From a virus (lineage: Duplodnaviria; Caudoviricetes), in IMG/VR virus record IMGVR_UViG_2875555210_000001: a stretch of DNA of 64,000 bases; one strand, given 5' to 3'. The stretch's first letter is position 1, and each line of letters starts with the position of its first letter. A model generated the notes under the pieces. That model worked only from the letters and a program-made list of their open reading frames with translations, made no database searches and had not been told where the DNA came from. A program made the translations under genes and the position numbers. Below are positions 25,653 to 44,870 of the stretch, in pieces.

Positions 25653-26708
25653 CTAAGCGATGCTTAGTCTCTTAATCGAATCGTCAATGAACTTGACGTT
25701 TGGCGAATCCGCCTTAAACCCGCGAGCTAGAAGTCGCTCACGGTTCTTTTGAACGTCGGCAATAATCTTCCGGCGCTCGCTTAAATCCAGCACATCTGCG
25801 CTGTAAGGTGGGGGCGGCGTATAGTTCCGGCGAAAGTTCGCCTCAGGCGACAAATACTTGCCGTCCACGTAATTGCCGTGACCATACTGTTCCCACAAAT
25901 CAAGGAAATACTTAGCGCGCTCATCCCATTTGTCTTTTTCACTAAAGACCGGTCGCATCGTGCATTGACAGTTGTCATGCACCTTCGCCGGTCCATCACC
26001 GATGAACGCGCGCCTCGTGCCCTTGTCACTATTGGAGGACCACTTAACCTCCCGAACCTTGCGATTCGAGACAGCGAAAGCGTCCTCTTTGTAGAAAACC
26101 GCACCCTGTGACGCCAAGATGGCGCAGAAGTAGCACGGATTGTTGTCGGTCTTACGCGCGTACCCGATAGCCTTACCCTGCTTTAAACGCCGGGGGGCCT
26201 CTCGCTGCACGAACTGCAAAACCTCGGAGCGACCGCCGTCAGTCGCCTTAGTGGCACCCGTCCCTTCGGACTTAGCCTTACCGGCTTCCATCGCTTCCGC
26301 CTCAGGCTTAGCGCGCGCAACTTGGCGCTTAACCTCAACCGGACCACGAACCCGCATCGCAGTTTGAATGTCCTGCACGGGAAAATTAACCGCCGCCTTC
26401 ACAGGTGGCGTAGCGTCTGGCTCACTCGCAAACAAAGCCCGCTGCACATACTCAAACGCCGCTTCGCTGGATTCATCCCAGCCCATTTTGATTTGTAGCG
26501 TGGTGGCGTGCAGCCAAGACGGAGTTGACCCGTCCAGATCGCCAAAGTTAATGATCGGCCACAGCAGGGCCAGGCCCGCCGCAGTCGTCGCCGCGATCTG
26601 CTCCTGGCGCTCGACATGCTGAGTCGCATACCAAGCGGCCAGGGCAGGAACCGCGATCAACGGAAGAGTGGCCTTGTCGTCCCTATCGTCCTGGTCGTCC
26701 TCGGCCAC
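25653..26708 (-). CDS. MuF-like minor head / capsid maturation protein
   Basis: Between portal and scaffold; PCYFCAILASQG...HDNCQC motif. Confidence 0.75.
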   Translation of the reverse strand: MAEDDQDDRDDKATLPLIAVPALAAWYATQHVERQEQIAATTAAGLALLWPIINFGDLDGSTPSWLHATTLQIKMGWDESSEAAFEYVQRALFASEPDATPPVKAAVNFPVQDIQTAMRVRGPVEVKRQVARAKPEAEAMEAGKAKSEGTGATKATDGGRSEVLQFVQREAPRRLKQGKAIGYARKTDNNPCYFCAILASQGAVFYKEDAFAVSNRKVREVKWSSNSDKGTRRAFIGDGPAKVHDNCQCTMRPVFSEKDKWDERAKYFLDLWEQYGHGNYVDGKYLSPEANFRRNYTPPPPYSADVLDLSERRKIIADVQKNRERLLARGFKADSPNVKFIDDSIKRLSIA

Positions 26709-30550: not shown

Positions 30551-30928
30551 CTACCCGTACTTCTTAAAGAGTTCCTTCATCGCTTTACGCTTATTCTTGC
30601 TGGCAGTGCCGAAATAATCGCTCGTGTGCATACCGTTCTTGCGGACAGCCGCATCAGCAATCCGGCCCTTAGTGCGCGGCCTATCCGTGTACTGCACGCC
30701 GATAGACACATCACCCTTCGTGAACGTCCCGTACATGTGCCGAGTAGCGCCCGAAGGGCTGCTAGTCATCAGCTTTTCCGAGTATTCCCAGCCCTCTTTA
30801 GCGCCCAACTGCTGCGCATACTCCATCGCGTTGCGCGGTTTCGCCTGGTAGACGTCCCTAGAGGCTTTCCTAGACGAACGATCACGCCCGCCGTAGTTCC
30901 GAGCGTGCGGAGCGCCACGACCGCCCAT
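30551..30928 (-). CDS. gene 1; basic MGGRG-leader protein
   Basis: AGGAGG RBS; begins MGGRG; first gene after cos. Confidence 0.8.
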   Translation of the reverse strand: MGGRGAPHARNYGGRDRSSRKASRDVYQAKPRNAMEYAQQLGAKEGWEYSEKLMTSSPSGATRHMYGTFTKGDVSIGVQYTDRPRTKGRIADAAVRKNGMHTSDYFGTASKNKRKAMKELFKKYG

Positions 30929-31018
30929 AGTGACCTCCTAAGTGGGTGCGACCTGCTGTTTTGTCGCACTTTCCAGGGCTTTTAACGGTTCTTAATCGCC
31001 AGAGAGAGAAGAAACGCT

Positions 31019-31028
31019 GGCTGATCGA
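31019..31028 (-). other. candidate cos site (joined 10-nt 3' cohesive ends TCGATCAGCC)
   Basis: Matches my recollection of the Cluster L overhang; lies about 90 nt upstream of gene 1 at the junction with the non-coding right end. Confidence 0.75.
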
Positions 31029-31256
31029 GGAGGGGACCGCGACTCGAAAATCGACACCCCCCAGGGGGGTCAAGTCTCTGACCTGCGGTTTCTCTGTTAG
31101 CTGGCAGAGGCCGGCTCAGGCTAAGGTCACCCTTAGTCACACGCTTTGGCCTTAGCTCGTACCCTCTGACCTGCGCATATGTCGCTATGATCGAAACAAT
31201 GGCTTAGGCTGGGCCAGCAAACATGTGCTGATCGTTTGCTACGTCGAGGGTCGGGC

Positions 31257-31286
31257 ATGGTACACCCTGTGTACGGTCCATGTCAA
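31257..31286 (-). promoter_or_regulatory. SigA-like promoter with GTAC-N7-GTAC box
   Basis: TTGACA-N18-TACCAT, pointing across cos toward gene 1 and terminase. Confidence 0.65.
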
Positions 31287-31289
31287 CAC

Positions 31290-31710
31290 TATTGGTGTGT
31301 CGTGTTTGTGCATGTCGCCCTGTGGCTAACGTGTCCTTAGGCGTGGCCTTAGTCATGCGTTAGCGCTGTGCCCTGTGGGCTGTGTAGCGCTGTGCGTAGT
31401 GCTGCCCTGTGCGATGGCTTAGGTATGTGCCTTGGGTGTGGCTGTGTGCCCTGTGGGCTAGCGCTTAGGGCGTGCCCTGTGTGTTGGGCGCTCTGGCCGC
31501 TGTGTGTGTGGCCGTGCCCTGTGTGTGGGAATGGCGCTGTGTGGCGCTGTGCGCTGTGCTGTGCCGTGTGCCCTAGCGGCTTGTGTGTCCGCACTGTGTT
31601 AGTGGCTGTGTGTGGCTGTGAGGCTGTGTTGTGCGTGCCCTGGCCGCGTGGCTGTGTGGGCTGTGCGCTGTGTGGTGCGGCTGGCGCTGTGCGTATGGCC
31701 GCTGTGTTCT
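31290..31710. repeat. TG-rich low-complexity tract
   Basis: Repeated GTGCCCTGTG/GCTGTG units; plus strand strongly depleted of A. Confidence 0.8.
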
Positions 31711-31748
31711 GAAAAGCTGCTCGGTTCTAACCCTCACCTACGCGCATG

Positions 31749-31777
31749 TTGCGCCTTACGTACACGGCGCGTACTGT
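31749..31777 (+). promoter_or_regulatory. promoter with GTAC-N7-GTAC box
   Basis: TTGCGC-N17-TACTGT. Confidence 0.6.
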
Positions 31778-31821
31778 GTCGCTTGTCAGTCACCACAACC
31801 ACCTACCGAAGGGTCACCACA

Positions 31822-32193
31822 ATGAGCACCTACATTGATCAGCTTCTGGACACTGTTACCGATATCGAAGCTGAGCGCGCTAGCCAGTACGCAGAGCACG
31901 ACGTAGACGACACCAGCGCCGACGACATTGCAGACATGCACGATTGGGCAGCTAAGGCAGAAGCTGAGCGCGCGTTTGCAAGGCTTATGCAGCGTGCCCA
32001 CGGCTTGATTGACCGCGCTTACATGTCCAGCAAGGTTGGCTATGCGCAGAGCGCCATTGCTACGGCTCAGCGTGCCCTCACGGTCACTACCGACGCTTAC
32101 GCAGTGGGTGAGGCTAACCACTTGATCGGCGAAGCAACACGGTTGATTGACCGTCTCAACAACAACTATGCAGCGGCTAAGGGCCGGTACTAA
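31822..32193 (+). CDS. hypothetical protein
   Basis: ATG after GAAGGG; MSTYIDQLLD... Confidence 0.7.
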   Translation: MSTYIDQLLDTVTDIEAERASQYAEHDVDDTSADDIADMHDWAAKAEAERAFARLMQRAHGLIDRAYMSSKVGYAQSAIATAQRALTVTTDAYAVGEANHLIGEATRLIDRLNNNYAAAKGRY

Positions 32194-32276
32194 GCCAGCG
32201 TTGCCCGGCCCGGTATGGCTCACAGCCTGCCTGGCCGGTCCCTTACCAGCACTTACCTACAAAAGGAGACACAACA

Positions 32277-32435
32277 ATGGACCCGAACGCGACATTGCGG
32301 GAATTGCGCGAAATGATTGGCGACAGTGACCCGCATAGCGCAGCACGTTCGCGCCGATACGCGGAATTGATCGAATCGCTAGACGATTGGCTCTCAAGTG
32401 GTGGCTTTCTGCCGAGCGACTGGAATAGGGGATAG
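32277..32435 (+). CDS. small hypothetical protein (MDPNATL...GGFLP.DW type)
   Basis: AAGGAG RBS; 52 aa; not in the ORF track. Confidence 0.7.
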   Translation: MDPNATLRELREMIGDSDPHSAARSRRYAELIESLDDWLSSGGFLPSDWNRG

Positions 32436-32441
32436 CGCACC

Positions 32442-32681
32442 ATGAACACGCAAACGATCAACGTCACCACAGAACGCAGCATGACGCGGGCCGGAGTAAT
32501 GCGCCTGGCCGCGCTGGTCACGTTTGGCGCTGGCCTGGCCGCGCTGGCGCTGTACTGGCCGCACGCGGACACGCTGAGCGCTCCCGTACTGCGCTGCACA
32601 GTGACCAATGTGGACGGTCACGTGTACCTAGACGATTGCGACACGTACAGCGACAACGTGACGGGGGAACGCCATGCGTAG
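32442..32681 (+). CDS. membrane/secreted hypothetical protein
   Basis: 79 aa, one TM helix, two Cys. Confidence 0.55.
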   Translation: MNTQTINVTTERSMTRAGVMRLAALVTFGAGLAALALYWPHADTLSAPVLRCTVTNVDGHVYLDDCDTYSDNVTGERHA

Positions 32682-32794
32682 TTTCATCCCGGTTTGGCAC
32701 GGTTGCATGACACATAACGCCAACCATTGCGCAGACTGCCGCACGTGCGACTGTCTCAGGGACAAACCGCGCTAGCCGCGCTCCCCTGGCTTAG

Positions 32795-32827
32795 GACCCG
32801 TTACCCGGTTGGGTAGCGGGTTCTTTA
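32795..32827 (+). terminator. intrinsic terminator
   Basis: ACCCGTTACCC-GGTT-GGGTAGCGGGT followed by TCTTT. Confidence 0.65.
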
Positions 32828-32988
32828 CGTTGTGGCCTGGCCGCTGAGCGCCAGGCGTAGCCGGACACGAACCAAGCAGCTCCGTCGTGGCTGCCCTGGC
32901 CGCTGGCCTAGTGCCACCTAAGGCCACGTAGTGACACACAGGGACACACAGCCTGATCAGGCACTTTATGCGCGTTGTACTTAATCGT

Positions 32989-33017
32989 TTGCAAACATCG
33001 TATGTGCTGTGTAACTT
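32989..33017 (+). promoter_or_regulatory. promoter with degenerate GTAY-N7-GTA box
   Basis: TTGCAA-N17-TAACTT. Confidence 0.55.
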
Positions 33018-33076
33018 GTCTCTTGTCACCACAACCTAGCCGGACCAACCAACCGGCCCGCGAAAGGACTACCGAT

Positions 33077-34318
33077 ATGACTGCCACCCTGACCAAGCTT
33101 TCACAGCGGACGCTGCGCACAGGCTGCCCCAAGTGCAAAAACGAGGGACCGTTCTACCTTGCTTCTGACGAGAACGGCGCAGAGCACTTGGTTATCAAGA
33201 ATGCTTTGACCAAAGCTGCCGCACAGGGCGAAACCATTGCCGCACAGTTCCAGCACGTGTGCGTCGAAACGTTCGGCACTAACGAGGGCAACGGTGACGC
33301 TACCGGCGGTAGCACTACCGAGACCGGGCGCAACATTCTTACCGACACTCAGGGGAGCGTGCCGACGCAGGGGACCGCTACCGAGACTGTGCCCACGACT
33401 GGCGCTAACGGTGCCGACGCTGGCGAAATGGACGCGTTGCGCGAACTGCTGCTTAAGGTGCTCGGTAAGCAGCAGCTTGACGAGACCCAGATTGAGGCGA
33501 TCATTTCGCGCAAGATGGAAGAGTTCGTTTACCCGACGCGGACGTATGTCCAGACCGAGACCGAGACCCGCGAGATTGAGGGTGTCACTCATAAGCAGTT
33601 CGGCGACATTCTCGATGCCATCGCTAGCGGTGAAAACGTGCAGTTGGTCGGCGGCCCCGGTGTCGGTAAGACTCACGTGTGTGAGCAGGTGGCAGAAGCG
33701 CTTAGCCGTGAGTTCTACGTGGTCAACTTTCACTTGCAGAGCACGGCGTCGGAACTCAAGGGCTACATGTCCGCTACGGGCGAGTACGTGCCCACGGCGG
33801 TTTACGATTGGGCGACTAACCCTGAGGGTGGCGTGCTGCTCTGCGATGAAGTGGACCGGGCGCACGCGGGTATCCTGGCTGGCCTCAACTCCATCCTGTC
33901 TAACCGTTTCCTTGCGCTCCCCAACCGTGAGATTGTCCGTCTCAATGACAACCACGTGATTCTGGCCGCTACCAACACTTGGGGTATGGGTCCCACGTGG
34001 GAATACCCGGCAGCTCAGAAATTCAGCGCTGAGTTCATGGACCGGTTCATCGCAATGGAAATTGAGATTGATACCGATATCGAAATGGCAGCCGCTATGG
34101 CTAAGGGCGCTCCGGTTGACGTGACCAAGCGTGCAGTTGCCTACGTGCAGCGCGTTCGGGAGAACGTTAAGCGTGAGGCTGTGACCGGGGTGGTTATCTC
34201 GCCTCGTGCGTCTCAGAAGATGGCCGCGCTTCTGGCGCGTAACGTCGATTGGGATAAGGCAGTCGCTTGGTCGCTGCGTAAGGGCATGGATGAAGCTACG
34301 TGGCGTAAGGTGGCCTAG
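33077..34318 (+). CDS. MoxR/CbbQ/CobS-like AAA+ ATPase
   Basis: GGPGVGKT Walker A, LLCDEVD Walker B, AATNT sensor, DRF; AAAGGA RBS. Confidence 0.9.
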   Translation: MTATLTKLSQRTLRTGCPKCKNEGPFYLASDENGAEHLVIKNALTKAAAQGETIAAQFQHVCVETFGTNEGNGDATGGSTTETGRNILTDTQGSVPTQGTATETVPTTGANGADAGEMDALRELLLKVLGKQQLDETQIEAIISRKMEEFVYPTRTYVQTETETREIEGVTHKQFGDILDAIASGENVQLVGGPGVGKTHVCEQVAEALSREFYVVNFHLQSTASELKGYMSATGEYVPTAVYDWATNPEGGVLLCDEVDRAHAGILAGLNSILSNRFLALPNREIVRLNDNHVILAATNTWGMGPTWEYPAAQKFSAEFMDRFIAMEIEIDTDIEMAAAMAKGAPVDVTKRAVAYVQRVRENVKREAVTGVVISPRASQKMAALLARNVDWDKAVAWSLRKGMDEATWRKVA

Positions 34319-34332
34319 CCACTAGCCCACAG

Positions 34333-34371
34333 GGGACCGGTTACCGCTCTGGTAGCCGGTCCCTTTGCTTT
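34333..34371 (+). terminator. intrinsic terminator
   Basis: GGGACCGGTTACC-GCTCT-GGTAGCCGGTCCC followed by TTTGCTTT. Confidence 0.75.
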
Positions 34372-34447
34372 GCGCCTAAGCACGCCTTAGCGCGTGCCAG
34401 CCAGCATGACGGAGCTGCTTGGTTCCGGCCCCTGGCCGCGTACGCGG

Positions 34448-34477
34448 TTGCGTCACCACGTACACGTGCTGTACCTT
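34448..34477 (+). promoter_or_regulatory. promoter with GTAC-N7-GTAC box
   Basis: TTGCGT-N18-TACCTT. Confidence 0.6.
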
Positions 34478-34520
34478 GACCCGTAGCAGGTCACCACGGC
34501 CCAAACGGGAGGATTGAAAA

Positions 34521-35369
34521 ATGCAGGTCACCAAACCGGGCAACATTATCCAACACAGCTACGCCAGCCTTGCAGAGTTCGCCGAATACCAGCGCTCCCA
34601 CAAGCACTACAACATGGGCAAGCGCAGCGCAGCGGCTAACCGTGAGTTCTCCGGCGTGGCCAGCATTAACGAGGCGTGCGACAAAGCACTAGCCGGACTG
34701 CCAGAAGATGGCGTTAAGGTTCTGGACACGTCACGGTCCCTTACCGATAGCGCCATGCGGCAAGTGTCCGCGTACGACATGGAAAGCACGTACGACGTAG
34801 CCGGTTCATACGTCGATATGGGACGGTTCGTTACCGGTGAACCTGAGTGCATGATTCAAACCACGTTCGATGAAGTGCCCGTTACCCGTCCCGTCGTGAC
34901 CATCGTTAGCAATATCAACGCGTCCGGCGGTATCGGCAAGGACGAACTACGGGACCGTGGTCGGTTGATCGTGGCACTGATCAAGGCAGTTGAAACGTCG
35001 GGCCGGTCCACTGAGCTTTGGACGGACTCAACCAACCAAGCGCGTAAGGGCTACGAGACGATTGACGAGTATTACCGGATCAGCGTCAAGATCAAGGCTG
35101 CCAGCCAGCCGCTAGACATGGGCGCTGTGATGTACGCGTTTACAGACCCGTCCATGCTGCGTGTTCTCAAGTTCAACGCCATGCACGCGCTACCCGCGTC
35201 GGAGCAACGTAAGTACAACGTCGGTAGCGGCTACGGGTACGTGGTTAAGGAATCTGTGTGCGTCCCTGAGACCTACGGTGACGGGGCGGTTTACTTGCCA
35301 GCCGTGCGCTTGGGCGACAACGCAGAAGAGACCGTTAAGCAGGTTCTACGGGACTTAGGTATCGGCTAG
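34521..35369 (+). CDS. VWA-like partner of AAA ATPase (paralog 1)
   Basis: DVAGSYVDMGRFVTGEPECM, then a beta strand and K...PLD motif; GGGAGG RBS. Confidence 0.65.
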   Translation: MQVTKPGNIIQHSYASLAEFAEYQRSHKHYNMGKRSAAANREFSGVASINEACDKALAGLPEDGVKVLDTSRSLTDSAMRQVSAYDMESTYDVAGSYVDMGRFVTGEPECMIQTTFDEVPVTRPVVTIVSNINASGGIGKDELRDRGRLIVALIKAVETSGRSTELWTDSTNQARKGYETIDEYYRISVKIKAASQPLDMGAVMYAFTDPSMLRVLKFNAMHALPASEQRKYNVGSGYGYVVKESVCVPETYGDGAVYLPAVRLGDNAEETVKQVLRDLGIG

Positions 35370-35385
35370 CCGGTACCGGTCCACT

Positions 35386-35420
35386 AAGCGCCAGGGGAGC
35401 AAGTGCCCTGGCGCTTTTTT
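35386..35420 (+). terminator. intrinsic terminator
   Basis: AAGCGCCAGGG...CCCTGGCGCTTTTTT. Confidence 0.75.
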
Positions 35421-36050
35421 CGTGCCCTGGCTGGCGCGTCCCCTAAGCGCCCCTAGCGCGTTCTAGGGCACCCGTTACCCTAACCGGCCCCTAAAAGTCT
35501 GCCAGCGTTGAATCTAGCGGCCATTCTGGCGCGCTCCCGGCTGGCTTAGTTATTCCCCGGCGCGGTACCCGTCCCCCGGCTGGCGCTGGCACGCTCCCCC
35601 GGTCCGTCGCCCTGGCCGCGTACCCGGCTGGCTTATCCGGTCCCCTGGCCGCTGGCGCTAAGCAACCTAAGCGCGCTTAGCCGTAAGGCACGTTCACCAG
35701 AGCTGGCACAAGTCGGACTAGCGGTTACCGCTAACTAGTTCGCAAGCCTAAGGGTTTGGCCGAAAAAAGTTTCGTTTGCCTAAGTAAATGGGCCGAACGG
35801 GTGTTCGATCGCTTAGCGGGCAAATCGCTCATCCGTTCGAGGCTGCTGCTCGGTTCCCACCCGGCCTAACCCCTGCTGCGTACCCGCTGACCAGGGCCGA
35901 CCTAAGCCTAAGGCCGCCCCAGCCGTGGGGGCTGCTCGGTTCTCCACCGCCCCCGCCCGCCTGACCAGGCCAAACGCCCAGCCGGGGCCGGGGGGAAGAA
36001 TTGGCATAATTGCAAAATTGGAAAATTGCGGAATTGAGAAAATTGGAAAA

Positions 36051-36533
36051 TCAGCGCTTCGCGCGATCCACCCAGTACGCAGTCAACATTGCCGCATTCA
36101 CAGCCGCCAACGCGGGAGCACTACCCGCCTGCGTCACCGTGGACGACACAGCCATAGCCGTCTTGATAAACCGCACCAGAGACCAGTACGCACCACGTGA
36201 GTACGCCTGAGCCGCACCGCGCCCGTACTTGCGCTCATACGCGATCACAGCCGCCTTATGTGCCGCGAGCAACTTAGCCGCATCCGCTGGCTTAATGACC
36301 TTGCTCTCATCGCGCCCAATGCGCGGTATCCGCTTGCCCTCAGCGTTAGCGCCGTTCACAAAGTGTTCCTTGTCGGACCCCGTAAGGCCCAGAGCATCAG
36401 CCGCCGCGTTCGGGTCACTGTGCTTCTCGGCAGAAGCATCCACAGCAGGCCGCTTATCGACAGTTAGATCACTGTCACCGCCCTTACTGCCACCCTTACC
36501 ACCGCCGGTACCGCCGCCACCGCGACCACCCAT
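36051..36533 (-). CDS. MGGRG-leader protein
   Basis: AAGGGGG RBS then MGGRGGGGTGGGKGGSKGG; 160 aa; isolated on the opposite strand to its neighbours. Confidence 0.75.
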   Translation of the reverse strand: MGGRGGGGTGGGKGGSKGGDSDLTVDKRPAVDASAEKHSDPNAAADALGLTGSDKEHFVNGANAEGKRIPRIGRDESKVIKPADAAKLLAAHKAAVIAYERKYGRGAAQAYSRGAYWSLVRFIKTAMAVSSTVTQAGSAPALAAVNAAMLTAYWVDRAKR

Positions 36534-36557
36534 GCTTAACCCCCTTAGTAAGAACAT

Positions 36558-36585
36558 TTGACACTCGGTACAGGGCATGTATTGT
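36558..36585 (+). promoter_or_regulatory. promoter with GTAC-N7-GTAT box (leaderless transcript)
   Basis: TTGACA-N16-TATTGT; ATG 7 nt downstream. Confidence 0.65.
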
Positions 36586-36592
36586 GAGGTCC

Positions 36593-36808
36593 ATGAGCAA
36601 CAGCCGAGTGAAGTGGGTCAGCCCCACCGGATTCACTGTCATGTACGAACACGAGGACGGCAGCGTGAGCTACGACTTCCCGACCGAGCGTCACCCGCAG
36701 CTCCCCCGCGAGGACACGTCCAACAAGGGCAAGTTCGGCCTCAAGGGCGCGGTCCAGGCCGTGATGGCTGACGAGGACGCCGCCGACGCACTAGCGATGG
36801 CGAGCTGA
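36593..36808 (+). CDS. hypothetical protein
   Basis: ATG at the predicted transcription start. Confidence 0.6.
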   Translation: MSNSRVKWVSPTGFTVMYEHEDGSVSYDFPTERHPQLPREDTSNKGKFGLKGAVQAVMADEDAADALAMAS

Positions 36809-36809
36809 C

Positions 36810-37088
36810 ATGCCCACACAGACCCGACACACCTACGACATAGGCGACCTGGTACGCGAGCGTGCCACCGCTAAGGACTGGGAACTGATCTTTGACAACG
36901 GCAAGGTCGTTGTCTACGAGAAGCCCGGCAGATACGGCGGCATGTTCGAGCTGGAAGTCCGATTCGACCGCGATGGCCGCATCGAGTGGGCAGAGAAACG
37001 TAAGGACGGCGAGTGGACCAGCCGTATGCACGTAATGGACGACTTCGGCACCACTGACGTGCAGATCGAAACTCTGCGACTGTTCTAA
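36810..37088 (+). CDS. hypothetical protein
   Basis: 92 aa, tightly packed in operon. Confidence 0.65.
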   Translation: MPTQTRHTYDIGDLVRERATAKDWELIFDNGKVVVYEKPGRYGGMFELEVRFDRDGRIEWAEKRKDGEWTSRMHVMDDFGTTDVQIETLRLF

Positions 37089-37100
37089 GGACACGTAAAC

Positions 37101-37364
37101 ATGAGCGCATTCACAAAATGGATTGACACGTTCCTAGACGAGAAGGACGTGAACCTTGACCACACGTTCGTCATCGAAACACCCGGCCACCAGTGGGAAT
37201 CGCACCTGATCCCCGTAGCCGTCGTGGTAGAGGTAGCCAAGAGCGTGTCCGCGTCCGAGCAGCTACAGATCAAGAACACGCTGGTCAGGCTCGACGCGTG
37301 CAACCAGCCGGTGCTCCCCTACTTCGAGCACCTAGCTAAAGCTCTCGCAGAAGCCGTGGACTAG
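37101..37364 (+). CDS. hypothetical protein
   Basis: 87 aa; AAGGA RBS. Confidence 0.7.
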   Translation: MSAFTKWIDTFLDEKDVNLDHTFVIETPGHQWESHLIPVAVVVEVAKSVSASEQLQIKNTLVRLDACNQPVLPYFEHLAKALAEAVD

Positions 37365-37451
37365 CGTCTACCGGTGTAACTTGGTGGGCGGGTCTGGTTA
37401 TCACATAACCGGGTCCGCCCACACGCATTTCAAGCTAAGGAATGAATAAGG

Positions 37452-37646
37452 GTGCCTAGCTTTCTCCCAGACATACCCGACAGCGCCGCAGCACTCATGC
37501 TCCGACAGGAACGACAACGCTTGACGCAAGAGCGCATTCGCCTAGTGCGCGAGATTGAGCACAACCAGCACCGCATCGACGCAATCGACGCGCGTCTAAG
37601 GGAGGTTAACGATGGAGAGCGTGTACTCTCCGAGCATGGTTTCTGA
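37452..37646 (+). CDS. coiled-coil hypothetical protein
   Basis: 64 aa. Confidence 0.55.
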   Translation: MPSFLPDIPDSAAALMLRQERQRLTQERIRLVREIEHNQHRIDAIDARLREVNDGERVLSEHGF

Positions 37647-37845
37647 CGCCACACTAATTGCCATCGCTGCCCGCACCGAGGCGATAGTTGCTGAGACCGT
37701 GGCACTTTACGACGCCATACGGGACGCTAAAGAAACGGGCTATTCATATAACGAGCTAGAAGCGGCGACTAAGTTTACGCGTGGCACATTGCAAAACATT
37801 GCAGCAGGTAAAAACCCGCGACTTTCAGTAGAAGATCGGTGTTGA
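37636..37845 (+). CDS. small HTH-like protein
   Basis: GYSYNELEAATKFTRGTLQNI resembles a helix-turn-helix. Confidence 0.55.
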   Translation: MVSDATLIAIAARTEAIVAETVALYDAIRDAKETGYSYNELEAATKFTRGTLQNIAAGKNPRLSVEDRC

Positions 37846-37870
37846 CACAGCCGTACTAGCCGTGTACCGT
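37842..37870 (+). promoter_or_regulatory. promoter with GTAC-N7-GTAC box (leaderless transcript)
   Basis: TTGACA-N17-TACCGT; ATG at 37878. Confidence 0.7.
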
Positions 37871-37877
37871 GAGTGAC

Positions 37878-38252
37878 ATGAGCAACGACAGCAGCCCACG
37901 CGCCCTGGTCCTCCATCCCCACGGAGCGCATTGGTTCATGGAAGCGCCACACGCCCATGAGCTGACAGCCATGCAGAACGCAGTGGGCGGCAACATCGAA
38001 GCCGTGTACGGGTGGAGTAGCCCCGACGCGGAAGTGTTCGACGTGACGTTCTTTTGCCACGACGAAGGTAGAATCTTGAATCAGCCGGTGAACTGGCAGG
38101 CAACGACGCTGTGGTGGCGCACGAACCCTGCTATGCCCGGCGTCGACCACCTGCGCGGAGTGGTTGTGGTGACCGGTGGCGCAGACGAGGACGGGAACAC
38201 CCTGCCCGTCCCCGATACGGTGGTCGAAATGTTGGAGCGGGCGGGGGAGTAA
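37878..38252 (+). CDS. DUF3846-like protein
   Basis: LTAMQNAVGGNIEAV...DEGR....N..AT...LRGVVVVTG. Confidence 0.7.
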   Translation: MSNDSSPRALVLHPHGAHWFMEAPHAHELTAMQNAVGGNIEAVYGWSSPDAEVFDVTFFCHDEGRILNQPVNWQATTLWWRTNPAMPGVDHLRGVVVVTGGADEDGNTLPVPDTVVEMLERAGE

Positions 38253-38348
38253 TCCCCCGCCCGTCTCCCATTCATCAAACTTCTCTGTCTTTAGCCTCTT
38301 TCGCTAAAGCATCCTAAATTTACTAAACCTCAAAGGGGTGGCTTAATC

Positions 38349-39200
38349 ATGCGTATGCAACGTTACGAGGACAAGGAACGTAGCCTCAAGCGGAGCGTTA
38401 TCACGTTCGATTCGTTCGATGAGCTGCTAACCCATAACCGCGAAGGTACAGACCACCGGTCTAAGCACATGGACGACCCGTCGTTCTACGGCGTTAAGGA
38501 CATGAAGGAAGCTGACCAGCTCGGCCAGAAGGGTTTGCCCAAAGCTGGTATCGAGGCGATCAACATTGCAGAGCACAAAGTGGCCCTGCTAGCGGGCGAT
38601 CTGTACCGGCCCGCGTACAACGAGTACCACGACACTGCCGGGGCATTCGTGGACATGGGGCGCTACATGGAAGGTGAGCCGGAGTGCATGGTCGACTTCA
38701 CGCCGACCGAGGAACCCGGCCAGAATAAGATTGTCGCGCTCATCCTTAACATCACCTACAACTGGGCGATTAGCGCTAAGGCGATTAAGGAGAACGGCCA
38801 GGCAATGTTTGCTCTGGTTGAAGCTATCGAAACCGCTGGGATGCAGGCCGAAATCTGGGTCGACATGTACGTGCGTGGTTTCGGTAGCGAATACCGTGCC
38901 CGTACCGCTGTGCGGCTTAAGAAAGCGGGTGAGGCATTCGACGTGTCCATGTTCATGTACGCGCTGACCCACAACTCATTCCTTCGCGCTCACCTGTTCA
39001 ACGCGATGCACTCCCACGATTCCGACGTGCGCGATGCCTGCGGTATCCACCCGTCCGGCGGGTACGGCTCGTGCATCAACAACGCACAGGACATGGAGGA
39101 CTTTCCTCCGTACTCGATTTACATTCCTTGCATTTCCAGCGACTCGCAGGCCGGTAAGTTCGTACCTGCCGTGCTGCGCCAGCTCGGCCTCATGAAGTAG
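38349..39200 (+). CDS. VWA-like protein (paralog 2)
   Basis: DTAGAFVDMGRYMEGEPECM; colinear similarity to 34521..35369. Confidence 0.65.
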   Translation: MRMQRYEDKERSLKRSVITFDSFDELLTHNREGTDHRSKHMDDPSFYGVKDMKEADQLGQKGLPKAGIEAINIAEHKVALLAGDLYRPAYNEYHDTAGAFVDMGRYMEGEPECMVDFTPTEEPGQNKIVALILNITYNWAISAKAIKENGQAMFALVEAIETAGMQAEIWVDMYVRGFGSEYRARTAVRLKKAGEAFDVSMFMYALTHNSFLRAHLFNAMHSHDSDVRDACGIHPSGGYGSCINNAQDMEDFPPYSIYIPCISSDSQAGKFVPAVLRQLGLMK

Positions 39201-39228
39201 AAATGTCACAGTGACGGAAGGTGTCGCA

Positions 39229-39474
39229 ATGCCTGAGTGTGTAGATCACAACCACGTTGACGAACTGGGAGCCTGCGAGGGTGCAGTGAGCCTCTACGCG
39301 TCCCTCTCCGGATCGGGAGAGTCGTACCCGCGCTGTGAGCGCCACTACCGGCTGTACGTCGAACGTCTGCAACCGCAGATTGACGCTATCCGCCGGAACT
39401 ACCCCGACACCGACCAGCCGCCAAGCTGGTTTGACCCGACCTATGCCGGAGAACGCTGGAATGAAGATGATTAA
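39229..39474 (+). CDS. Cys-containing hypothetical protein
   Basis: RCERH..PSWFDPTYAGERW. Confidence 0.6.
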   Translation: MPECVDHNHVDELGACEGAVSLYASLSGSGESYPRCERHYRLYVERLQPQIDAIRRNYPDTDQPPSWFDPTYAGERWNEDD

Positions 39475-39628
39475 CAAGTGGCGTCCGCGCCTCGTTAAGG
39501 CGACCTTGGGGCAGTTCTTTACCGCCATGTCCCAAGCGTCTAACACTCAGTCAGACGAGAAGCTGTTTATGGTGACAATGGGGCCGTTTATGTTCGTAGG
39601 CCCCGGCGAGAGGCGTGCATGGAAATGA
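39461..39628 (+). CDS. small hypothetical protein
   Basis: Fills the operon gap. Confidence 0.4.
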   Translation: MKMINKWRPRLVKATLGQFFTAMSQASNTQSDEKLFMVTMGPFMFVGPGERRAWK

Positions 39629-40188
39629 GCGACGACAACGTTGACATTCGCATTGAACTGCCGCTGCCTATCGACATTACCGGCACGCTCATAAACGTTA
39701 TCGGGCTAACCTGGCCGCACGCCGTCATCAAGGACGACGGCAACGATAAAGGCTGGCGTTCCGATAACCGGCTAGTCCTCAGCATTCCACCGGAGGACCG
39801 GCATAAGAGCGCTAAGAAGGCCGAGAAGTACGCCAAGGTCAAGGCACACCTGAAAGCCGAAACCGACGCGATGATTAGCGAGCTGGACCCCAACGCATTC
39901 AGCTTGGGCCTGCCAGCTTGGCTAGCCGATCAGTTCGTGGCAATCGCTAAGGTCTGGCACGCCCAGTACCCCGAGGGCACCAACTACCTGGAATCCACGC
40001 TGCGCGAGAAGGACACTAACCAAGAGTGGGTGTTCTACGTCGCCAAGGCTAAGGACCGGACCCCACACGCGCTCCGTCAGGTCGCAGAGAATAAGCTAGA
40101 GAAACTTAAAGCGTTAGCGCTTGACGCTAAGGCAGAGAATGAGCGGCTTACCCCCGACGAAATTCTCGCCATTATAGGTGTTGACTAG
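39619..40188 (+). CDS. hypothetical protein
   Basis: 189 aa ORF. Confidence 0.7.
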   Translation: MEMSDDNVDIRIELPLPIDITGTLINVIGLTWPHAVIKDDGNDKGWRSDNRLVLSIPPEDRHKSAKKAEKYAKVKAHLKAETDAMISELDPNAFSLGLPAWLADQFVAIAKVWHAQYPEGTNYLESTLREKDTNQEWVFYVAKAKDRTPHALRQVAENKLEKLKALALDAKAENERLTPDEILAIIGVD

Positions 40189-40209
40189 TCAGTATACGGC
40201 CTGTACGGT
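40181..40209 (+). promoter_or_regulatory. promoter with GTAT-N7-GTAC box (leaderless transcript)
   Basis: TTGACT-N17-TACGGT; ATG at 40216. Confidence 0.7.
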
Positions 40210-40215
40210 AAACGC

Positions 40216-40650
40216 ATGAGCGATATCAACCGGCCCGCACCGAACCCCTGCGCCTCATGCCCATACCGGCGCGACGTGCCAAGCGGCATCTGGGCCGAAC
40301 AGGAATACGTCAAGCTCCCCCAGTACGACGCTGACATGCCTTACCAGCCGACCGGACTGTTCCAGTGCCACCAGAACGAACGGAACGACCCGCACGCCCG
40401 GCTCTGCGCCGGTTGGGTCGGAACCCACGGCCCCGACAACCTGCTAGCACTGCGCCTGGCATCCGCGTTCGGGTCCATGTCGCACGAGGAGCTGGACGCG
40501 ACATTCGACTACAGCAGCCCCGTCCCACTCTTCGCCAGCGGGCACGAAGCCGCAGAGCACGGCGTGCGTGATATCGACGCGCCTGACGAGGACGCAGAGC
40601 GAGCAATCGCCAAGATCGCTAAGCGCCGCAACGACGTAAGGATGAGCTAA
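40216..40650 (+). CDS. DUF6283-like Cys-rich protein
   Basis: PCASCPYRRDVPSGIW...FQCH...CAGW. Confidence 0.65.
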   Translation: MSDINRPAPNPCASCPYRRDVPSGIWAEQEYVKLPQYDADMPYQPTGLFQCHQNERNDPHARLCAGWVGTHGPDNLLALRLASAFGSMSHEELDATFDYSSPVPLFASGHEAAEHGVRDIDAPDEDAERAIAKIAKRRNDVRMS

Positions 40651-40652
40651 CT

Positions 40653-40985
40653 ATGGCACCGATCTATGATCGACTCAATTCAGTCGCGCTATCTCTGCAT
40701 TTCGGATGCGACGAAGAAAGCACCGCAGCGAAGAATCAGCAGGACATCGCCGAAATGGCATACGACGTGATCAGAGACTTATGGGGTTACGACGTAAGCG
40801 ACGAACACGCCTTCATAAAGGCAATAATGGACACGTTCGACATGTATGGATACCCCGACCTTGAGTCACTTAAGGGTATATCTGAAATGTCGGCGCTGGA
40901 CATGGCCGATTACATCTTGCAACTGCTACCCACCGATGCGCTCACGCCGAAGCGGTCTGATACACTATGCGCCGCGCCCCTATAG
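40653..40985 (+). CDS. hypothetical protein
   Basis: 110 aa acidic ORF; its stop overlaps the 5' end of tRNA-Lys. Confidence 0.55.
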   Translation: MAPIYDRLNSVALSLHFGCDEESTAAKNQQDIAEMAYDVIRDLWGYDVSDEHAFIKAIMDTFDMYGYPDLESLKGISEMSALDMADYILQLLPTDALTPKRSDTLCAAPL

Positions 40986-41048
40986 CTCAGTTGGTAGAGC
41001 AGGAGACTTTTAATCTTCGGGTCCTAGGTTCGATCCCTAGTGGGGGCA
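40976..41048 (+). tRNA. tRNA-Lys(TTT)
   Basis: GCCCCTA/TGGGGGC acceptor, CT-TTT-AA loop, TTCGATC T-loop. Confidence 0.9.
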
Positions 41049-41051
41049 CCC

Positions 41052-41243
41052 ATGCAGCGCCCTAGAGGCCAATTCCTCATTACCCTCGTCGTCACAACAG
41101 ACCTGGACGAGTGGATAGAGGACTTTAAGCTAGTCGGCCCCTTATCCGCTAAGGCATTCATACGCGGACTCGCCGCCGAAGCGGTACAGCACGAAATCGA
41201 GAAGCACGGCTACAAGGCCACTATCGAACTTAAGCGGCCATAA
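41052..41243 (+). CDS. hypothetical protein
   Basis: 63 aa between two tRNAs. Confidence 0.5.
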   Translation: MQRPRGQFLITLVVTTDLDEWIEDFKLVGPLSAKAFIRGLAAEAVQHEIEKHGYKATIELKRP

Positions 41244-41245
41244 AG

Positions 41246-41318
41246 CTCCAACGGGTGGACTCGAACCACCAACCACGCGATTAACAGTCGCGCGCTCTGC
41301 CAATTGAGCTACGGAGGA
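41246..41318 (-). tRNA. tRNA-Asn(GTT), two acceptor mismatches
   Basis: TCCTCCG/CGTTGGA acceptor, CT-GTT-AA, TTCGAGT. Confidence 0.8.
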
Positions 41319-41324
41319 ATAAAC

Positions 41325-41465
41325 ATGTGGACCGTCTGGATGAAAGACGCCATAGACGACGACCGGATCGTGCTAAGCGACATAAGTCACTACCACGCGG
41401 ACCGGCTCATGCACAACCTGTTGGGCATCATGCCTGACGCCAATGTATGGATGGAGGAAGAATGA
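41325..41465 (+). CDS. small hypothetical protein
   Basis: GGAGGA RBS; MWTVWMKD..., 46 aa. Confidence 0.5.
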   Translation: MWTVWMKDAIDDDRIVLSDISHYHADRLMHNLLGIMPDANVWMEEE

Positions 41466-41611
41466 GCAGCAACCACGACCACGACGACATCGAACCCGGC
41501 TGGGCTGGCCTAGGCCGTTTCCTGTGGCCCGTAGGCGTCTACTTCAAGCTCAAGGGCTGGCTCATGAGCAAGGGCATCATCAAGCCCAACAACTGGGACG
41601 ATGGCCGCTAA
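41462..41611 (+). CDS. small hypothetical protein
   Basis: GGAGG RBS; ATGA overlap; 49 aa. Confidence 0.5.
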   Translation: MSSNHDHDDIEPGWAGLGRFLWPVGVYFKLKGWLMSKGIIKPNNWDDGR

Positions 41612-41687
41612 CTCATGGTGTCTTGCGATATGCCCTGCCTGCTTACGCACTTACCTAGTGCTGCCGGTAGGGCATACCTGCGAAACG

Positions 41688-41759
41688 AGCCGCCACCCAG
41701 AATCGAACTGGGATAAGTCGGATTTGCAGTCCGACGCCTAACCACTCAGCCATGACGGC
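41688..41759 (-). tRNA. tRNA-Cys(GCA)
   Basis: GCCGTCA/TGGCGGC acceptor, U73, CT-GCA-AA. Confidence 0.88.
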
Positions 41760-41760
41760 A

Positions 41761-42111
41761 CTACCGCTTCTTCCGGCGCTTACCCTCATAGTGCCGGAAG
41801 TTTGCGTTACTAAGCTCCTCCACCCTCACCCGAACATGACCCGACCACGGATCACGCTCAACCGCAGACTTCGGAACCTCCACAGCCACAACATTCTGGC
41901 CGTAACCCTCCTGGCCCTTAGCCGTCTTACTAAAGAACCCATACTGCGAGTTCTCATCCCGATAAGACTTATCCATGCCAGGCCGGAACTGAGGACGAAA
42001 CCCACCATCCACAATCGCGCGAGCCGCATCCGCAGAAGTCCGGTGATACAACGTCACCGTGGACGACCTGGCGCTCACCGGGCCACCGCCACCACCACCG
42101 CGACCGCCCAT
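41761..42111 (-). CDS. MGGRG-leader protein with ADP-ribosyltransferase-like motif
   Basis: GGGGG RBS just after the DUF4417 stop; MGGRGGGGGG then TLYHRTSADAARAIVDGGFRP. Confidence 0.7.
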   Translation of the reverse strand: MGGRGGGGGGPVSARSSTVTLYHRTSADAARAIVDGGFRPQFRPGMDKSYRDENSQYGFFSKTAKGQEGYGQNVVAVEVPKSAVERDPWSGHVRVRVEELSNANFRHYEGKRRKKR

Positions 42112-42121
42112 GTGGCACCCC

Positions 42122-42811
42122 CTAAGCGTTAACCGCCTTACGGCGCTCATCCCAGAACGTCGGGAACTCCCGCACAGGTGGCAGGTCCAAACCCTCCACA
42201 TGCACAAGCCGCCCGTAGCTAAGCAAAATCGCCGGCTCAAGGCGCTCGACCATCGCGGCCAGGCCCTCACGGAACAGCGCTTGATCCTCCGGCTTCGCCC
42301 GCACGCCGACCGCAGACACAGCCACAGGCCCGCCACGAGGCAGACCCTCGAAGCAGAAGTCGAACGTGTCTGAGCGTGCCCAGCAGGCCGTAGGAATGAC
42401 GTTCACGCCGTGGCTCTGCCAGTACGCGCCACACCAACGGGACCGGTACACGTTCCACAACTGCGCTGCACGCGGCATATCGCGCCACAAACTGAAATCT
42501 GGCGTCAGGGCACCGCCGACCGCTGTAACTCGCCCCAGCGTCCTCTCAGGGCTCGTAAACGCCGTCTCAAAACGGTAGTCGTCCAAAAAAAAGTGGATCG
42601 CCCCGTTCTCCCGAGCTGCACGCTCCCGCTGACGCGGCAGATGCCACGCCCCCAGGTAATCGGGCACCCAATCGCAACGCTCAAGATCAGGGAAACCAAA
42701 CGGATTGCTCGACGGGAAGATCGCACGCAGATTCAACGCGTCCATCTTCGCCGGAGCCTCCGACCAATACTTAGATGACCTCGTGCCGTAAAGGCTAAGC
42801 ACCTTAGACAC
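42122..42811 (-). CDS. DUF4417-like protein
   Basis: HFFLDDYRFE..TPDFSLWRDMP...WNVYRSRW.G.YWQ..GVNVIPT..W...FCFEGLP. Confidence 0.8.
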   Translation of the reverse strand: MSKVLSLYGTRSSKYWSEAPAKMDALNLRAIFPSSNPFGFPDLERCDWVPDYLGAWHLPRQRERAARENGAIHFFLDDYRFETAFTSPERTLGRVTAVGGALTPDFSLWRDMPRAAQLWNVYRSRWCGAYWQSHGVNVIPTACWARSDTFDFCFEGLPRGGPVAVSAVGVRAKPEDQALFREGLAAMVERLEPAILLSYGRLVHVEGLDLPPVREFPTFWDERRKAVNA

Positions 42812-42853
42812 GGACCACCCCCAAGTAAGTCAGCATGAGTACGTTTTCATGAG

Positions 42854-42942
42854 CGGAGAGCAGAGGGATCGAACCCCAAGCTCCATAACGGCTACCCGGC
42901 TTTCAAGGCCGGTCGCGGGCCACCCCCGCTGCATTACTCTCC
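42854..42942 (-). tRNA. tRNA-Ser(TGA), non-canonical fold
   Basis: CCGGC-CTTGAAA-GCCGG, long variable arm, G73, TTCGATC. Confidence 0.75.
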
Positions 42943-42943
42943 G

Positions 42944-43019
42944 TGGTACCCCGTACAGGACTTGAACCTGTGACCCGCCGATTAAGAGTCGGCTGCTCTA
43001 CCAACTGAGCTAACGAGGC
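42944..43019 (-). tRNA. tRNA-Lys(CTT)
   Basis: Canonical cloverleaf with encoded CCA. Confidence 0.92.
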
Positions 43020-43022
43020 AAG

Positions 43023-43089
43023 GCGTAGTCAATGCACCGCCACGCTTCCCCGTAGGGGGACAGGCCCGCCGCCTGGTCACCGACTACGC
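43023..43089 (-). ncRNA. putative structured small RNA inside tRNA cluster
   Basis: 9-bp closing stem GCGTAGTCG/TGACTACGC enclosing hairpins CAGGC/GCCTG and TCCCC/GGGGA. Confidence 0.4.
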
Positions 43090-43130
43090 ATAAGTGACCG
43101 CAGCTTTCAAAGTCCTAGCGATGCAAAGAG

Positions 43131-43204
43131 TGTGCTAGACAGGAATCGAACCCGCGAAATCCTGATTGGAAGTCAGGCACCCAGCCAACATGGGTTACTA
43201 GCAC
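43131..43204 (-). tRNA. tRNA-Gly(TCC), atypical identity elements
   Basis: GTGCTAG/CTAGCAC acceptor, A73, CT-TCC-AA. Confidence 0.8.
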
Positions 43205-43271
43205 GAGAGCTGGCAGTTGTTTAACGTCGCACCAGCAGACGAGTACAGCAGCTCCGTACGCGAGCCGCCCG

Positions 43272-43346
43272 CTGACCACCCCGGAATCGAACCTGGAACC
43301 TCCGGAGTCAGATTCCGGCGCAACTGCCTAATTGTGCTAGCGGTCA
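43272..43346 (-). tRNA. tRNA-Gln(CTG)
   Basis: TGACCGC/GTGGTCA (U1-A72), AT-CTG-AC loop. Confidence 0.82.
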
Positions 43347-43347
43347 A

Positions 43348-43421
43348 TGGCGACAGGCCGGGACTTGCACCCGAATCACCCGAGTCACAGTCGGGGGCTT
43401 TGCTACTTAAGCTACCTCGCG
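43348..43421 (-). tRNA. tRNA-His(GTG), degenerate
   Basis: CCCGA-CTGTGAC-TCGGG; T-loop TGCAAGT; imperfect acceptor. Confidence 0.6.
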
Positions 43422-43495
43422 TGGCCCCCGCGAGACTCGAACTCGCACTGACAGGTACCTAAAACCTGTGCCTCTGCCAATTGGGCTAGAGGGCC
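43422..43495 (-). tRNA. tRNA-Leu(TAG), short variable arm
   Basis: GGCCCTC/GGGGGCC acceptor, A73, TT-TAG-GT, 74 nt. Confidence 0.85.
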
Positions 43496-43508
43496 GATAA
43501 AATCTGCC

Positions 43509-43700
43509 TTACGTCAACCTGACACGGATGCCCCACACCGCTAAGCAGTGCTTGGGACCGGGTGGGTAGATCGTCAGCACGCGATCCCATTGCTCGCGGG
43601 TTAGGTGCAGGTAGCCGTCGTGATACGCGGGGTGATCAGGTACCCATGTCCACGGCTTCTCCAACTCGCCTGCGGCCACGATCTGGTCAACGATGTCCAT
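43509..43700 (-). CDS. hypothetical protein
   Basis: GGAGGA RBS; MDIVDQI... Confidence 0.55.
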   Translation of the reverse strand: MDIVDQIVAAGELEKPWTWVPDHPAYHDGYLHLTREQWDRVLTIYPPGPKHCLAVWGIRVRLT

Positions 43701-43725
43701 TCGTTCCTCCACCGCTAATTTCGCG

Positions 43726-43890
43726 CTACGTAAGGTAGTCCAGCCAGCCAGCCGGGAACGTGAACTCATGTCCGCACTCAAGCGCAACGGTAACGAGCCA
43801 GTCCCTATCCTCACGCAAAGCCTGACTAGTCACAGCTTTCAGGTCGTCGTCAGGACAGTCTGGGCAATGCTGCGACGGAAGCGTGTTCAT
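43726..43890 (-). CDS. small Zn-ribbon protein
   Basis: CPDC...CGH; 54 aa; not in the ORF track. Confidence 0.5.
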   Translation of the reverse strand: MNTLPSQHCPDCPDDDLKAVTSQALREDRDWLVTVALECGHEFTFPAGWLDYLT

Positions 43891-44851: not shown

Positions 44852-44870
44852 AATAATCTCCTCTATTTAG

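Follow-up and report, generated by a model that had tools for sequence, protein, structure and literature searches.

The 64,000-nucleotide stretch of DNA analysed here (the window; IMG/VR record IMGVR_UViG_2875555210_000001, from a virus of the Caudoviricetes) raises the question of why three dispersed genes between positions 30551 and 42811 begin with the identical pentapeptide MGGRG and then diverge, and what this common start has to do with the gene of the family DUF4417 that lies beside one of them. We propose that the three MGGRG genes and DUF4417 are parts of one functional system, widespread in phages, in which DUF4417 binds the N-terminal tag and marks or couples the tagged proteins, here called cargo, for delivery with the phage DNA. 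We put the probability of this reading at about 50%.

The window is 85-90% identical to Cluster L mycobacteriophages (Faithunavirus; CELFI, Tourach, Faith1), and its minus strand is the forward strand of the phage. An earlier note on this DNA had described three open reading frames (ORFs) that start with MGGRG behind ribosome-binding signals; all three are confirmed on the minus strand, each with a Shine-Dalgarno (SD)-like G-run 4-7 nt 5′ of the ATG. The first, 30551..30928, is phage gene 1 (125 aa, MGGRGAPH...; PHROG 7082), which adjoins the joined cos ends, lies upstream of the small terminase gene, and has its CELFI orthologue at nt 68-442 of the linear genome. The second, 36051..36533, begins MGGRGGGGTGGG and encodes a 160-aa protein in which MGGRGGGGTGGGKGG precedes a conserved C-terminal domain (PHROG 6176, matched from residue 1); it is, as described, a single phage-forward-strand gene amid reverse-strand genes. 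The third, 41761..42111, encodes 116 aa made up of MGGRGGGGGG, a domain of ~95 aa resembling ADP-ribosyltransferases (ARTs), and a KRRKKR tail. Its start lies 10 nt past the stop codon of 42122..42811 on the same strand, and the 229-aa product of that gene, DUF4417-like in the earlier note, is assigned to DUF4417 by Pfam (PF14386, E 4.3e-60). The synonymous codon differences among the three starts and the basic C-termini are also as described, the isoelectric points (pI) of the cargo proteins being 10.3, 9.9 and 10.3. Homologue sets of 4, 11 and 7 proteins were compared for families 1, 2 and 3, respectively, and the 11 homologues of family 2 start with MGGRG, MGKRG or MGRGRG.

The three-gene MGGRG motif is well above chance. 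The DNA pattern ATGGGNGGNCGNGG occurs five times in the window against an expected 0.09, a number that none of 100 shuffles reached. Translating the whole 6.9-Mb genome in six frames gives ten instances of the pentapeptide; five fall inside the 64-kb window, all of these on the minus strand. The two remaining window sites (26699-26712 and 53643-53656, minus strand) have the 21-mer GGGGGATGGGTGGSCGAGGAC in common. We rejected them as tagged genes and regard them as by-products, since they are ORFs of 9-10 codons, each overlapping a GTG start that lies 4 nt downstream, and since the peptide at 26712, where the overlapped GTG starts the head protein gene 25653..26708, is not conserved in Bazzle, whose equivalent site reads MGG-stop.

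It was also considered whether the true starts might lie elsewhere. The ORF at 36051 has a possible start 15 codons earlier (36051..36578), which is the one annotated for CELFI gp128 (L001:5135-5662). In families 2 and 3 the MGGRG Met is the first position of the PHROG profile, the alternative upstream stretch is not conserved in DyoEdafos, and other annotators choose the MG start, all of which supports the MGGRG starts. In the streptococcal loci described below, the tag ATG is the first in-frame start in 90 of 97 cases. The annotated starts of CELFI gp128, L5 gene 2 and IPP54_00033 are probably wrong: L5 gene 2 is annotated from 1305, and its MGGRG start at 1081 (L076) overlaps the end of gene 1, while IPP54_00033 is annotated from 16335 and has its MGGRG ATG at record position 16168 (L079).

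Comparison of the homologues shows selection on the predicted tag peptide, because the tag switches jointly in all three families with different codons. The window and CELFI carry MGGRG on all three. Bazzle carries MGKRGGD on gene 1, gene 115 (with a GTG start) and gene 135, and the three families of Archie read MGKRGGD, MGKRGGD and MGKRGGS. In Halena (subcluster L1), the residues after the start codon are GRGRGK, GRGRH and GRGRGS, or (M/V)GRGR(G/H) overall; the successive tag codons of the three genes are GGT/GGG/GGC, AGA/CGG/CGA, GGA/GGT/GGT and CGC/AGG/CGC, behind dissimilar upstream DNA. The earlier argument for selection on the peptide, which had been drawn from codon differences within the window, is thus borne out by this joint switching in Bazzle, Archie and Halena. 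The gene 1 proteins of Archie (L018:96-428) and Bazzle (L003:95-469), of 110 and 124 aa, have their first 24 residues (MGKRGGDNNPTGKRGRDSRKATR) in common and then continue into unrelated sequences; read from the alignment, this is a recombination joint directly behind the leader and a direct case of cargo swapping.

If the tag and DUF4417 belong together, they should also keep company outside Cluster L. Locus sets were drawn from IMG/VR with four DUF4417 seeds, those of the window, a human-gut phage, Streptococcus phage A1 and a Christensenellales phage, which are ~37% identical across phyla; this gave 296 loci, in every one of which DUF4417 was found again by tblastn. An ORF of at least 50 codons was counted as tagged if its start codon was followed by G-x-R-G or G-R-G, and as adjacent if it started no more than 200 nt from the 3′ end of DUF4417 or ended no more than 250 nt upstream of DUF4417. 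Such a tagged ORF is adjacent to DUF4417 in 53 of 56, 78 of 80, 66 of 80 and 62 of 80 loci (259 of 296 in total), and the great majority read exactly MGGRG. At the ORF starts of the 296 loci GGRG occurs 380 times (42 + 150 + 97 + 91), and its permutations GGGR, GRGG and RGGG 0 times each. Scans of whole records found 1-3 tagged starts per phage and none of the reversed pattern. Conversely, IMG/VR was scanned for DNA coding for MGGRGG-x-G, giving 83 matches among 80 loci examined. Forty-nine of these open an ORF of 50 codons or more. DUF4417 lies 42-994 nt from 29 of the 49 and near none of the 34 controls (short ORFs or Ser-encoding matches); the 29 are all gut-phage relatives and not independent of one another. 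The co-occurrence and adjacency of DUF4417 with MGGRG proteins that the earlier note had envisaged are therefore found in both directions. In Firmicutes phages the neighbours of the DUF4417-tag pair are terminase or head genes, and in Cluster A phages (L5, D29) the pair adjoins cos. In these Cluster A phages DUF4417 lies at the left genome end, and its final part is overlapped by the tagged gene, which encodes MG(G/K)RG, a Gly-rich linker of 70-80 residues and a variable domain. In the same loci (L087, L281, L283 and others) the Walker A loop of a PBSX-type large terminase reads GGRGS(L/T)KSS and inflates naive GGRG counts; this resemblance is probably a coincidence.

The partner of the tag is a large and phage-centred family. 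The protein encoded by 42122..42811 (PHROG 940, ‘nuclease’) matches PF14386 over residues 33-215 with 202.8 bits (gathering cut-off 28.9), and the family comprises 2,871 representative clusters at E ≤ 0.001. It is present in 511 deposited phage genomes (385 of Mycobacterium, 57 of Streptococcus, 42 of Gordonia, and others), L5 and D29 included, and is scarce in cellular genomes of the host class, with two matches in 401 sampled, of which the one above the cut-off is the present genome. A recent preprint describes frequent fusions of DUF4417 to ParB-CTPase domains (bioRxiv 10.1101/2025.10.10.680097).

Fold prediction, which the earlier note had put forward as a check, yields a confident TIM barrel (AlphaFold2 predicted local distance difference test, pLDDT, 93.5; predicted template-modelling score 0.89) whose nearest solved folds are the tRNA-guanine transglycosylases (TGTs) and DpdA. 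Among 48,161 representative chains, the only matches with Z of at least 8 are ArcTGT (9.8), DpdA (9.4) and QTRT2 (8.9). Bacterial TGT follows in fourth place with Z 7.7; these top four (PDB 1iq8, 7ui4, 6fv5 and 3unt) align over 159-176 residues with a root-mean-square deviation of 3.5-3.7, and generic TIM barrels reach no more than 7.5. In a second structural comparison, the top 50 entries listed all belong to the TGT family, with Z 7.7-9.4. The invariant or near-invariant polar residues of DUF4417, H73, D78 (invariant), D105 (near-invariant), S107, Y122 and R123, appear typical of an active site, and we presume DUF4417 to be an enzyme or a receptor for the tag.

The enzyme also appears to vary with the tag. 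A tree was built for 57 DUF4417 proteins, from the window, Bazzle, Archie, Halena and the 53 loci of set A that have a tagged neighbour, and it requires four changes of tag state. There is a single origin of GRGR and a minimum of three of GKRG: one in Bazzle/Archie, whose branch measures 1.45 changes per site, one in a Cluster A clade of 11 members and one in L068/L069. At residue 121, immediately before the near-invariant Y122-R123, each of the 37 GGRG-type enzymes has V (36) or I (1), and each of the 20 others has T; residues 142-143, beside the near-invariant W144, also shift with tag type. In Bazzle and Archie, where DUF4417 is strongly divergent, the tag differs on each of the three genes, two of which are 5-11 kb and ~65 kb distant from it. 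The correlation at residue 121 is suggestive. The co-occurrence and adjacency lend strong support to the earlier view of (M)GGRG as a recognition tag on swappable cargo tied to DUF4417, and the co-variation across three unlinked genes and with this residue also supports it.

What carries the tag is highly varied. The 443 tagged ORFs make up 52 clusters, of which 33 have at least two members; two of these 33 were set aside as false positives of the relaxed pattern, one being a spurious ORF and the other an MGTRGP family that resembles small terminases. By sequence clustering, the cargo comprises about 50 unrelated families. Recognisable domains include ADP-ribosyltransferase PF03496 and glutamine deamidase PF15644, each in an actinophage and a gut phage, as well as DUF3626 and HExxH peptidases, and some cargo genes bear the SEA-PHAGES labels ‘VIP2-like ADP-ribosyltransferase toxin’ and ‘metalloprotease’; the remaining cargo proteins are mostly of 70-180 aa and of no known family. 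In representatives of 31 clusters the median pI is 9.9, 26 have a pI above 9, and the last ten residues include three or more K/R in 22. Their consensus M1 G2 G3 R4 G5 holds in 31, 31, 28, 30 and 30 of the 31 clusters, and the next four positions are G/A/S, any residue, G/S and G; there are the lineage variants MGKRG, MGRGRG and MG(S/T)RG. Pfam searches found neither MuF nor any other domain ahead of the cargo domains.

Within the window, families 1 and 2 have no match in Pfam or NCBIfam, and a search of the ESM Atlas with gene 1 returned no usable match. Family 3 occurs in 70 Mycobacterium phage records and has no Pfam match, and profile and single-sequence searches against known structures were likewise empty; two of its seven homologues are named ADP-ribosyltransferase by UniRef. 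The catalytic triad of ARTs is H-Y-[E/D] or R-S-E; in the family 3 alignment H23, Y57 and D87 are invariant and E78 is variable. The fold model of 41761..42111 has a pLDDT of 73, and its listed matches with E < 0.4 all belong to the ART superfamily (Tpt1, TreTu, exotoxin A, DarT, PARPs) and are weak (E at least 0.013, TM 0.32-0.54). A distant homologue of this cargo protein (29% identity, E 6e-4) is gene 114 of the Cluster C myovirus ScoobyDoobyDoo (L011:2438-3052), which lies amid structural genes immediately 5′ of the tail sheath gene and has an untagged N-terminus, MTHRF....

A TGT-shaped barrel and a Gly-rich N-terminus also meet in the type IV cyclic-oligonucleotide-based antiphage signaling system (CBASS). 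There, the TGT-family protein Cap10 is remodelled to hold the Met-cleaved N-terminus of CdnD, a cGAS/DncV-like nucleotidyltransferase (CD-NTase), in the base pocket of its barrel, in an inactive complex; this N-terminus reads M(G/S)G(G/S)GG, and the QueC-like Cap9 puts 7-amido-7-deazaguanine on its Gly2 (bioRxiv 10.1101/2025.04.06.647259). Gly2, which is essential in CBASS, is invariant in 31 of 31 cargo clusters here. The differences are considerable. CBASS has one CD-NTase as partner, whereas the cargo consists of ~50 unrelated families that are phage-encoded and not host defence, and DUF4417 has no detectable sequence similarity to TGTs. Position 4 holds a nearly invariant Arg (30 of 31 clusters) that is absent from the CBASS motif. 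A search for QueC (PF06508), which did not extend to other phage loci and whose control was positive in 13 of 14 genomes, gave no match in the 6.9-Mb genome, prophage included. As this genome is 100% complete, the host is not expected to make 7-deazaguanine by the usual route. Because host and prophage have no QueC homologue, because of this Arg, and because of the many unrelated phage partners, the DUF4417-tag system is not a member of type IV CBASS.

For the DUF4417-tag system we propose the following course of events. Gly at residue 2 predicts removal of the initiator Met, which would leave the cargo with a free GGRG N-terminus. The pocket of the DUF4417 barrel may then bind this N-terminus, much as Cap10 holds its modified Gly2 N-terminus; we propose this step on the basis of gene linkage, co-variation and fold. 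DUF4417 would next mark or couple the cargo, most likely to nucleic acid, a partner at which the basic cargo, the ParB fusions and the transglycosylase fold faintly hint. The basic cargo would travel with the phage DNA into the capsid and on into the next host cell, as the effector-like domains and the gene positions suggest, and there the ART-like protein and other cargo may act early. In one relative (L298 ~4612-4660), a single case, the leader MVEMNLQYF of Prp/L27 type stands directly before GGRGASSG. Judging by its sequence, this leader fits the Prp motif MLxx(D/N)LQ(F/L)F'A, which in S. aureus phage 80alpha is applied to capsid and scaffold proteins (PMC9405229), and cleavage would again expose GGRG.

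It is also possible, albeit doubtful, that DUF4417 goes further and acts as a protein-nucleic-acid transglycosylase, opening, as TGT and DpdA do, an N-glycosidic bond in phage DNA (or in an RNA) and installing the GGRG tag where those enzymes put a 7-deazaguanine, so that swappable basic effectors would be covalently tethered to the genome, packaged and injected. In such a reaction the guanine-like guanidinium of the Arg or the free α-amine of the Gly would join the sugar C1′ in place of the base, and either attachment would be chemically plausible.

Several observations weigh against a tag-binding role of DUF4417 or limit how far it can be taken. The loci within a seed set are related, and the counts therefore overstate independence. 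Among MGGRGG ORFs, 20 of 49 have no DUF4417 in the available locus, some of these loci being incomplete and some of the ORFs probably chance GC-rich frames. A canonical adjacent tag is missing from 37 of 296 DUF4417 loci; 27 of these were inspected, and 15 carry a tag variant (GGGRG/GGRG after a 65-70-aa domain, MGTGGG, MSGRG, GTRG with a non-canonical start, a more distant MGGRG ORF, or a leader before GGRG). The 65-70-aa N-terminal domain before GGRG/GGGRG recurs beside (ParB-)DUF4417 (L190, L221, L197, L285, L307, L309, L318 and L320), and it may mean that a free N-terminus is not always needed or that further cleavage exists. Gordonia phage Kabocha has a ParB-DUF4417 without a tagged neighbour; Bromden, DyoEdafos and Douge are without family 1, and Bromden and Douge without family 2. 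The enzyme-tag co-variation amounts to only 2-3 independent contrasts and is not significant (sign test p 0.5). As to the fold, Z 8-10 is moderate for a TIM barrel, and a DUF4417 profile of 64 sequences gave no match at E ≤ 1 against all PDB sequences.

Two other explanations deserve weight, each of them considerably less probable in our judgement than binding of the tag for delivery. The tag could be a signal for capsid targeting or ejection that head proteins recognise (the portal, the scaffold, a MuF-like protein or a protease), with DUF4417 an unrelated base-exchange enzyme co-inherited in the same module. The cargo does resemble virion-delivered phage effectors, which include ARTs, peptidases and deamidases (PMC9503650, PMC5512222), its genes adjoin terminase, portal or MuF-like genes, a disordered Gly-rich leader would suit threading, and the frequent ParB fusions suggest that DUF4417 works on DNA. 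We consider such a signal unlikely nonetheless: the unlinked tags of gene 1 and the 36051 gene switch together with the divergent DUF4417 in Bazzle and Archie, residue 121 tracks tag type in 57 of 57 proteins, and the association holds both ways across phyla although the head genes differ.

Alternatively, DUF4417 could be a non-catalytic holder or chaperone that takes hold of the GGRG N-terminus and, in the producing cell, prevents toxic cargo from acting or keeps it in solution, with no transfer chemistry. A single conserved partner for many swappable proteins, many of them toxin-like, would fit this picture, and the inactive Cap10-CdnD complex offers a precedent (bioRxiv 10.1101/2025.04.06.647259). 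The retention of the active-site-like residues H73, D78, D105, S107, Y122 and R123 points the other way, as does the fact that many cargo proteins are small and basic with no obvious toxicity, and we hold a mere holder to be improbable to a similar degree.

Far less probable is a role in counter-defence, in which tagged proteins would mimic the Gly-rich N-termini of host QueC/TGT-type modules (type IV CBASS, Qat) and DUF4417 would interfere with them. The tag resembles the CD-NTase motif, and Cap10 has the same fold; the nearly invariant Arg is foreign to that motif, diverse enzymatic cargo is ill-suited to serve as decoys, and the whole-genome search found the host to lack a QueC homologue. 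Finally, the idea that the common start is an mRNA translation-initiation element or a recently copied DNA cassette can be dismissed as very improbable, since, although the three window starts also have the SD-like box TAGGGGGT/TAGGAGGT in common and two more sites with the 14-nt pattern overlap GTG starts, the tags of Halena use different Gly and Arg codons behind unlike upstream DNA, the 380 MGGRG starts use all four Gly and six Arg codons, composition-matched permutations are absent at ORF starts, and the 14-mer relaxed to three mismatches shows no excess (15 observed against 10.4 expected), so that a DNA- or mRNA-level motif was rejected.

A literature search that did not cover supplementary files found no published description of the DUF4417-tag pairing, and the known systems closest to the function that we propose for DUF4417 each differ from it. 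TGT and DpdA offer the nearest solved folds, and the ParB fusions suggest that DUF4417 likewise has a nucleic-acid substrate. However, DUF4417 has only 229 aa, direct reading of its sequence shows no CxCxxC, the zinc motif of TGTs, there are no 7-deazaguanine synthesis genes, and its linkage is to tagged proteins, not to DpdB or Que genes. The internal proteins and Alt of phage T4 likewise carry a short N-terminal signal on unrelated, swappable proteins, one of them an ADP-ribosyltransferase, with delivery alongside the DNA presumed here as well. The T4 capsid-targeting signal is a longer hydrophobic and acidic peptide that is cut off by the prohead protease, whereas GGRG stands at the very N-terminus and is coupled to a TGT-fold protein. 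The T4 analogy drawn earlier accordingly stands as a functional likeness, and its motif and machinery differ. Polymorphic toxins fused to MuF and polyvalent proteins, as covered in the passages searched (PMC3482391, PMC5512222), have ART, papain-like deamidase and zincin peptidase domains and a position near packaging or head genes in common with the cargo, which unlike them is free-standing, bears a five-residue tag and often a Gly-rich linker, and shows no MuF fusion and no giant chains; those passages make no mention of DUF4417 or the tag.

The setting of the genes is that of a prophage. The window sits inside one 6.9-Mb contig, which makes it an integrated prophage with joined cos ends and hence makes 30551..30928 phage gene 1; matching to the right ends of linear phage genomes ceases at ~31020. 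After gene 1 follow the small terminase, large terminase, portal and MuF-like/VG15 head protein genes. The last of these (25653..26708, minus strand, 3′ of the portal gene), given here for context only, has VG15 as its sole Pfam match (E 5e-10), and its relatives in Bazzle and Halena are annotated as MuF-like minor capsid protein or capsid maturation protease. The reverse-strand block around 36051..36533 contains an AAA_5/MoxR-like ATPase (32975-34318) and two paralogous DUF7192 proteins, encoded on the plus strand at 34521-35369 (E 1e-80) and 38349-39200 (E 7e-124). Twelve tRNA genes lie at 40976-45190, and the DUF4417 and ART-like pair is flanked by tRNA-Ser(tga) (42853-42942) and tRNA-Cys(gca) (41687-41759), as in other Cluster L phages. 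By the annotations of Bazzle and Halena, two proteins of Cluster L phages resemble NAD salvage enzymes, namely a nicotinate ribosyltransferase and a phosphoribosyl(pyrophosphate) transferase, and these phages also encode a Ro-like protein, an RNA ligase and a polynucleotide kinase; the NAD genes may supply the ART-like cargo. RNA libraries from four runs of one study contain contigs, for example one spanning 42178-43000 in run X1, that are 90-99% like parts of window 35000-43000 and come from related phages, so that expression level, strand and timing cannot be read from them.

The window itself contributes a dispersed three-gene arrangement in cultivable, genetically tractable phages, the concerted switching of the tag, the correlation at residue 121, the leader variant and the counts given above, and MGGRG starts would correct reference annotations such as that of L5 gene 2. 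If our proposal is right, the role of DUF4417 would be to handle a five-residue N-terminal tag on phage proteins of dozens of unrelated kinds, toxin-like enzymes in many cases, and the action of the TGT fold on protein N-termini would extend beyond one bacterial defence system. Such a tag-plus-enzyme pair would be a simple, portable candidate for loading proteins onto phage particles or DNA. It would also constitute a new cargo or effector system in the temperate phages that infect mycobacteria, streptococci and gut Firmicutes.

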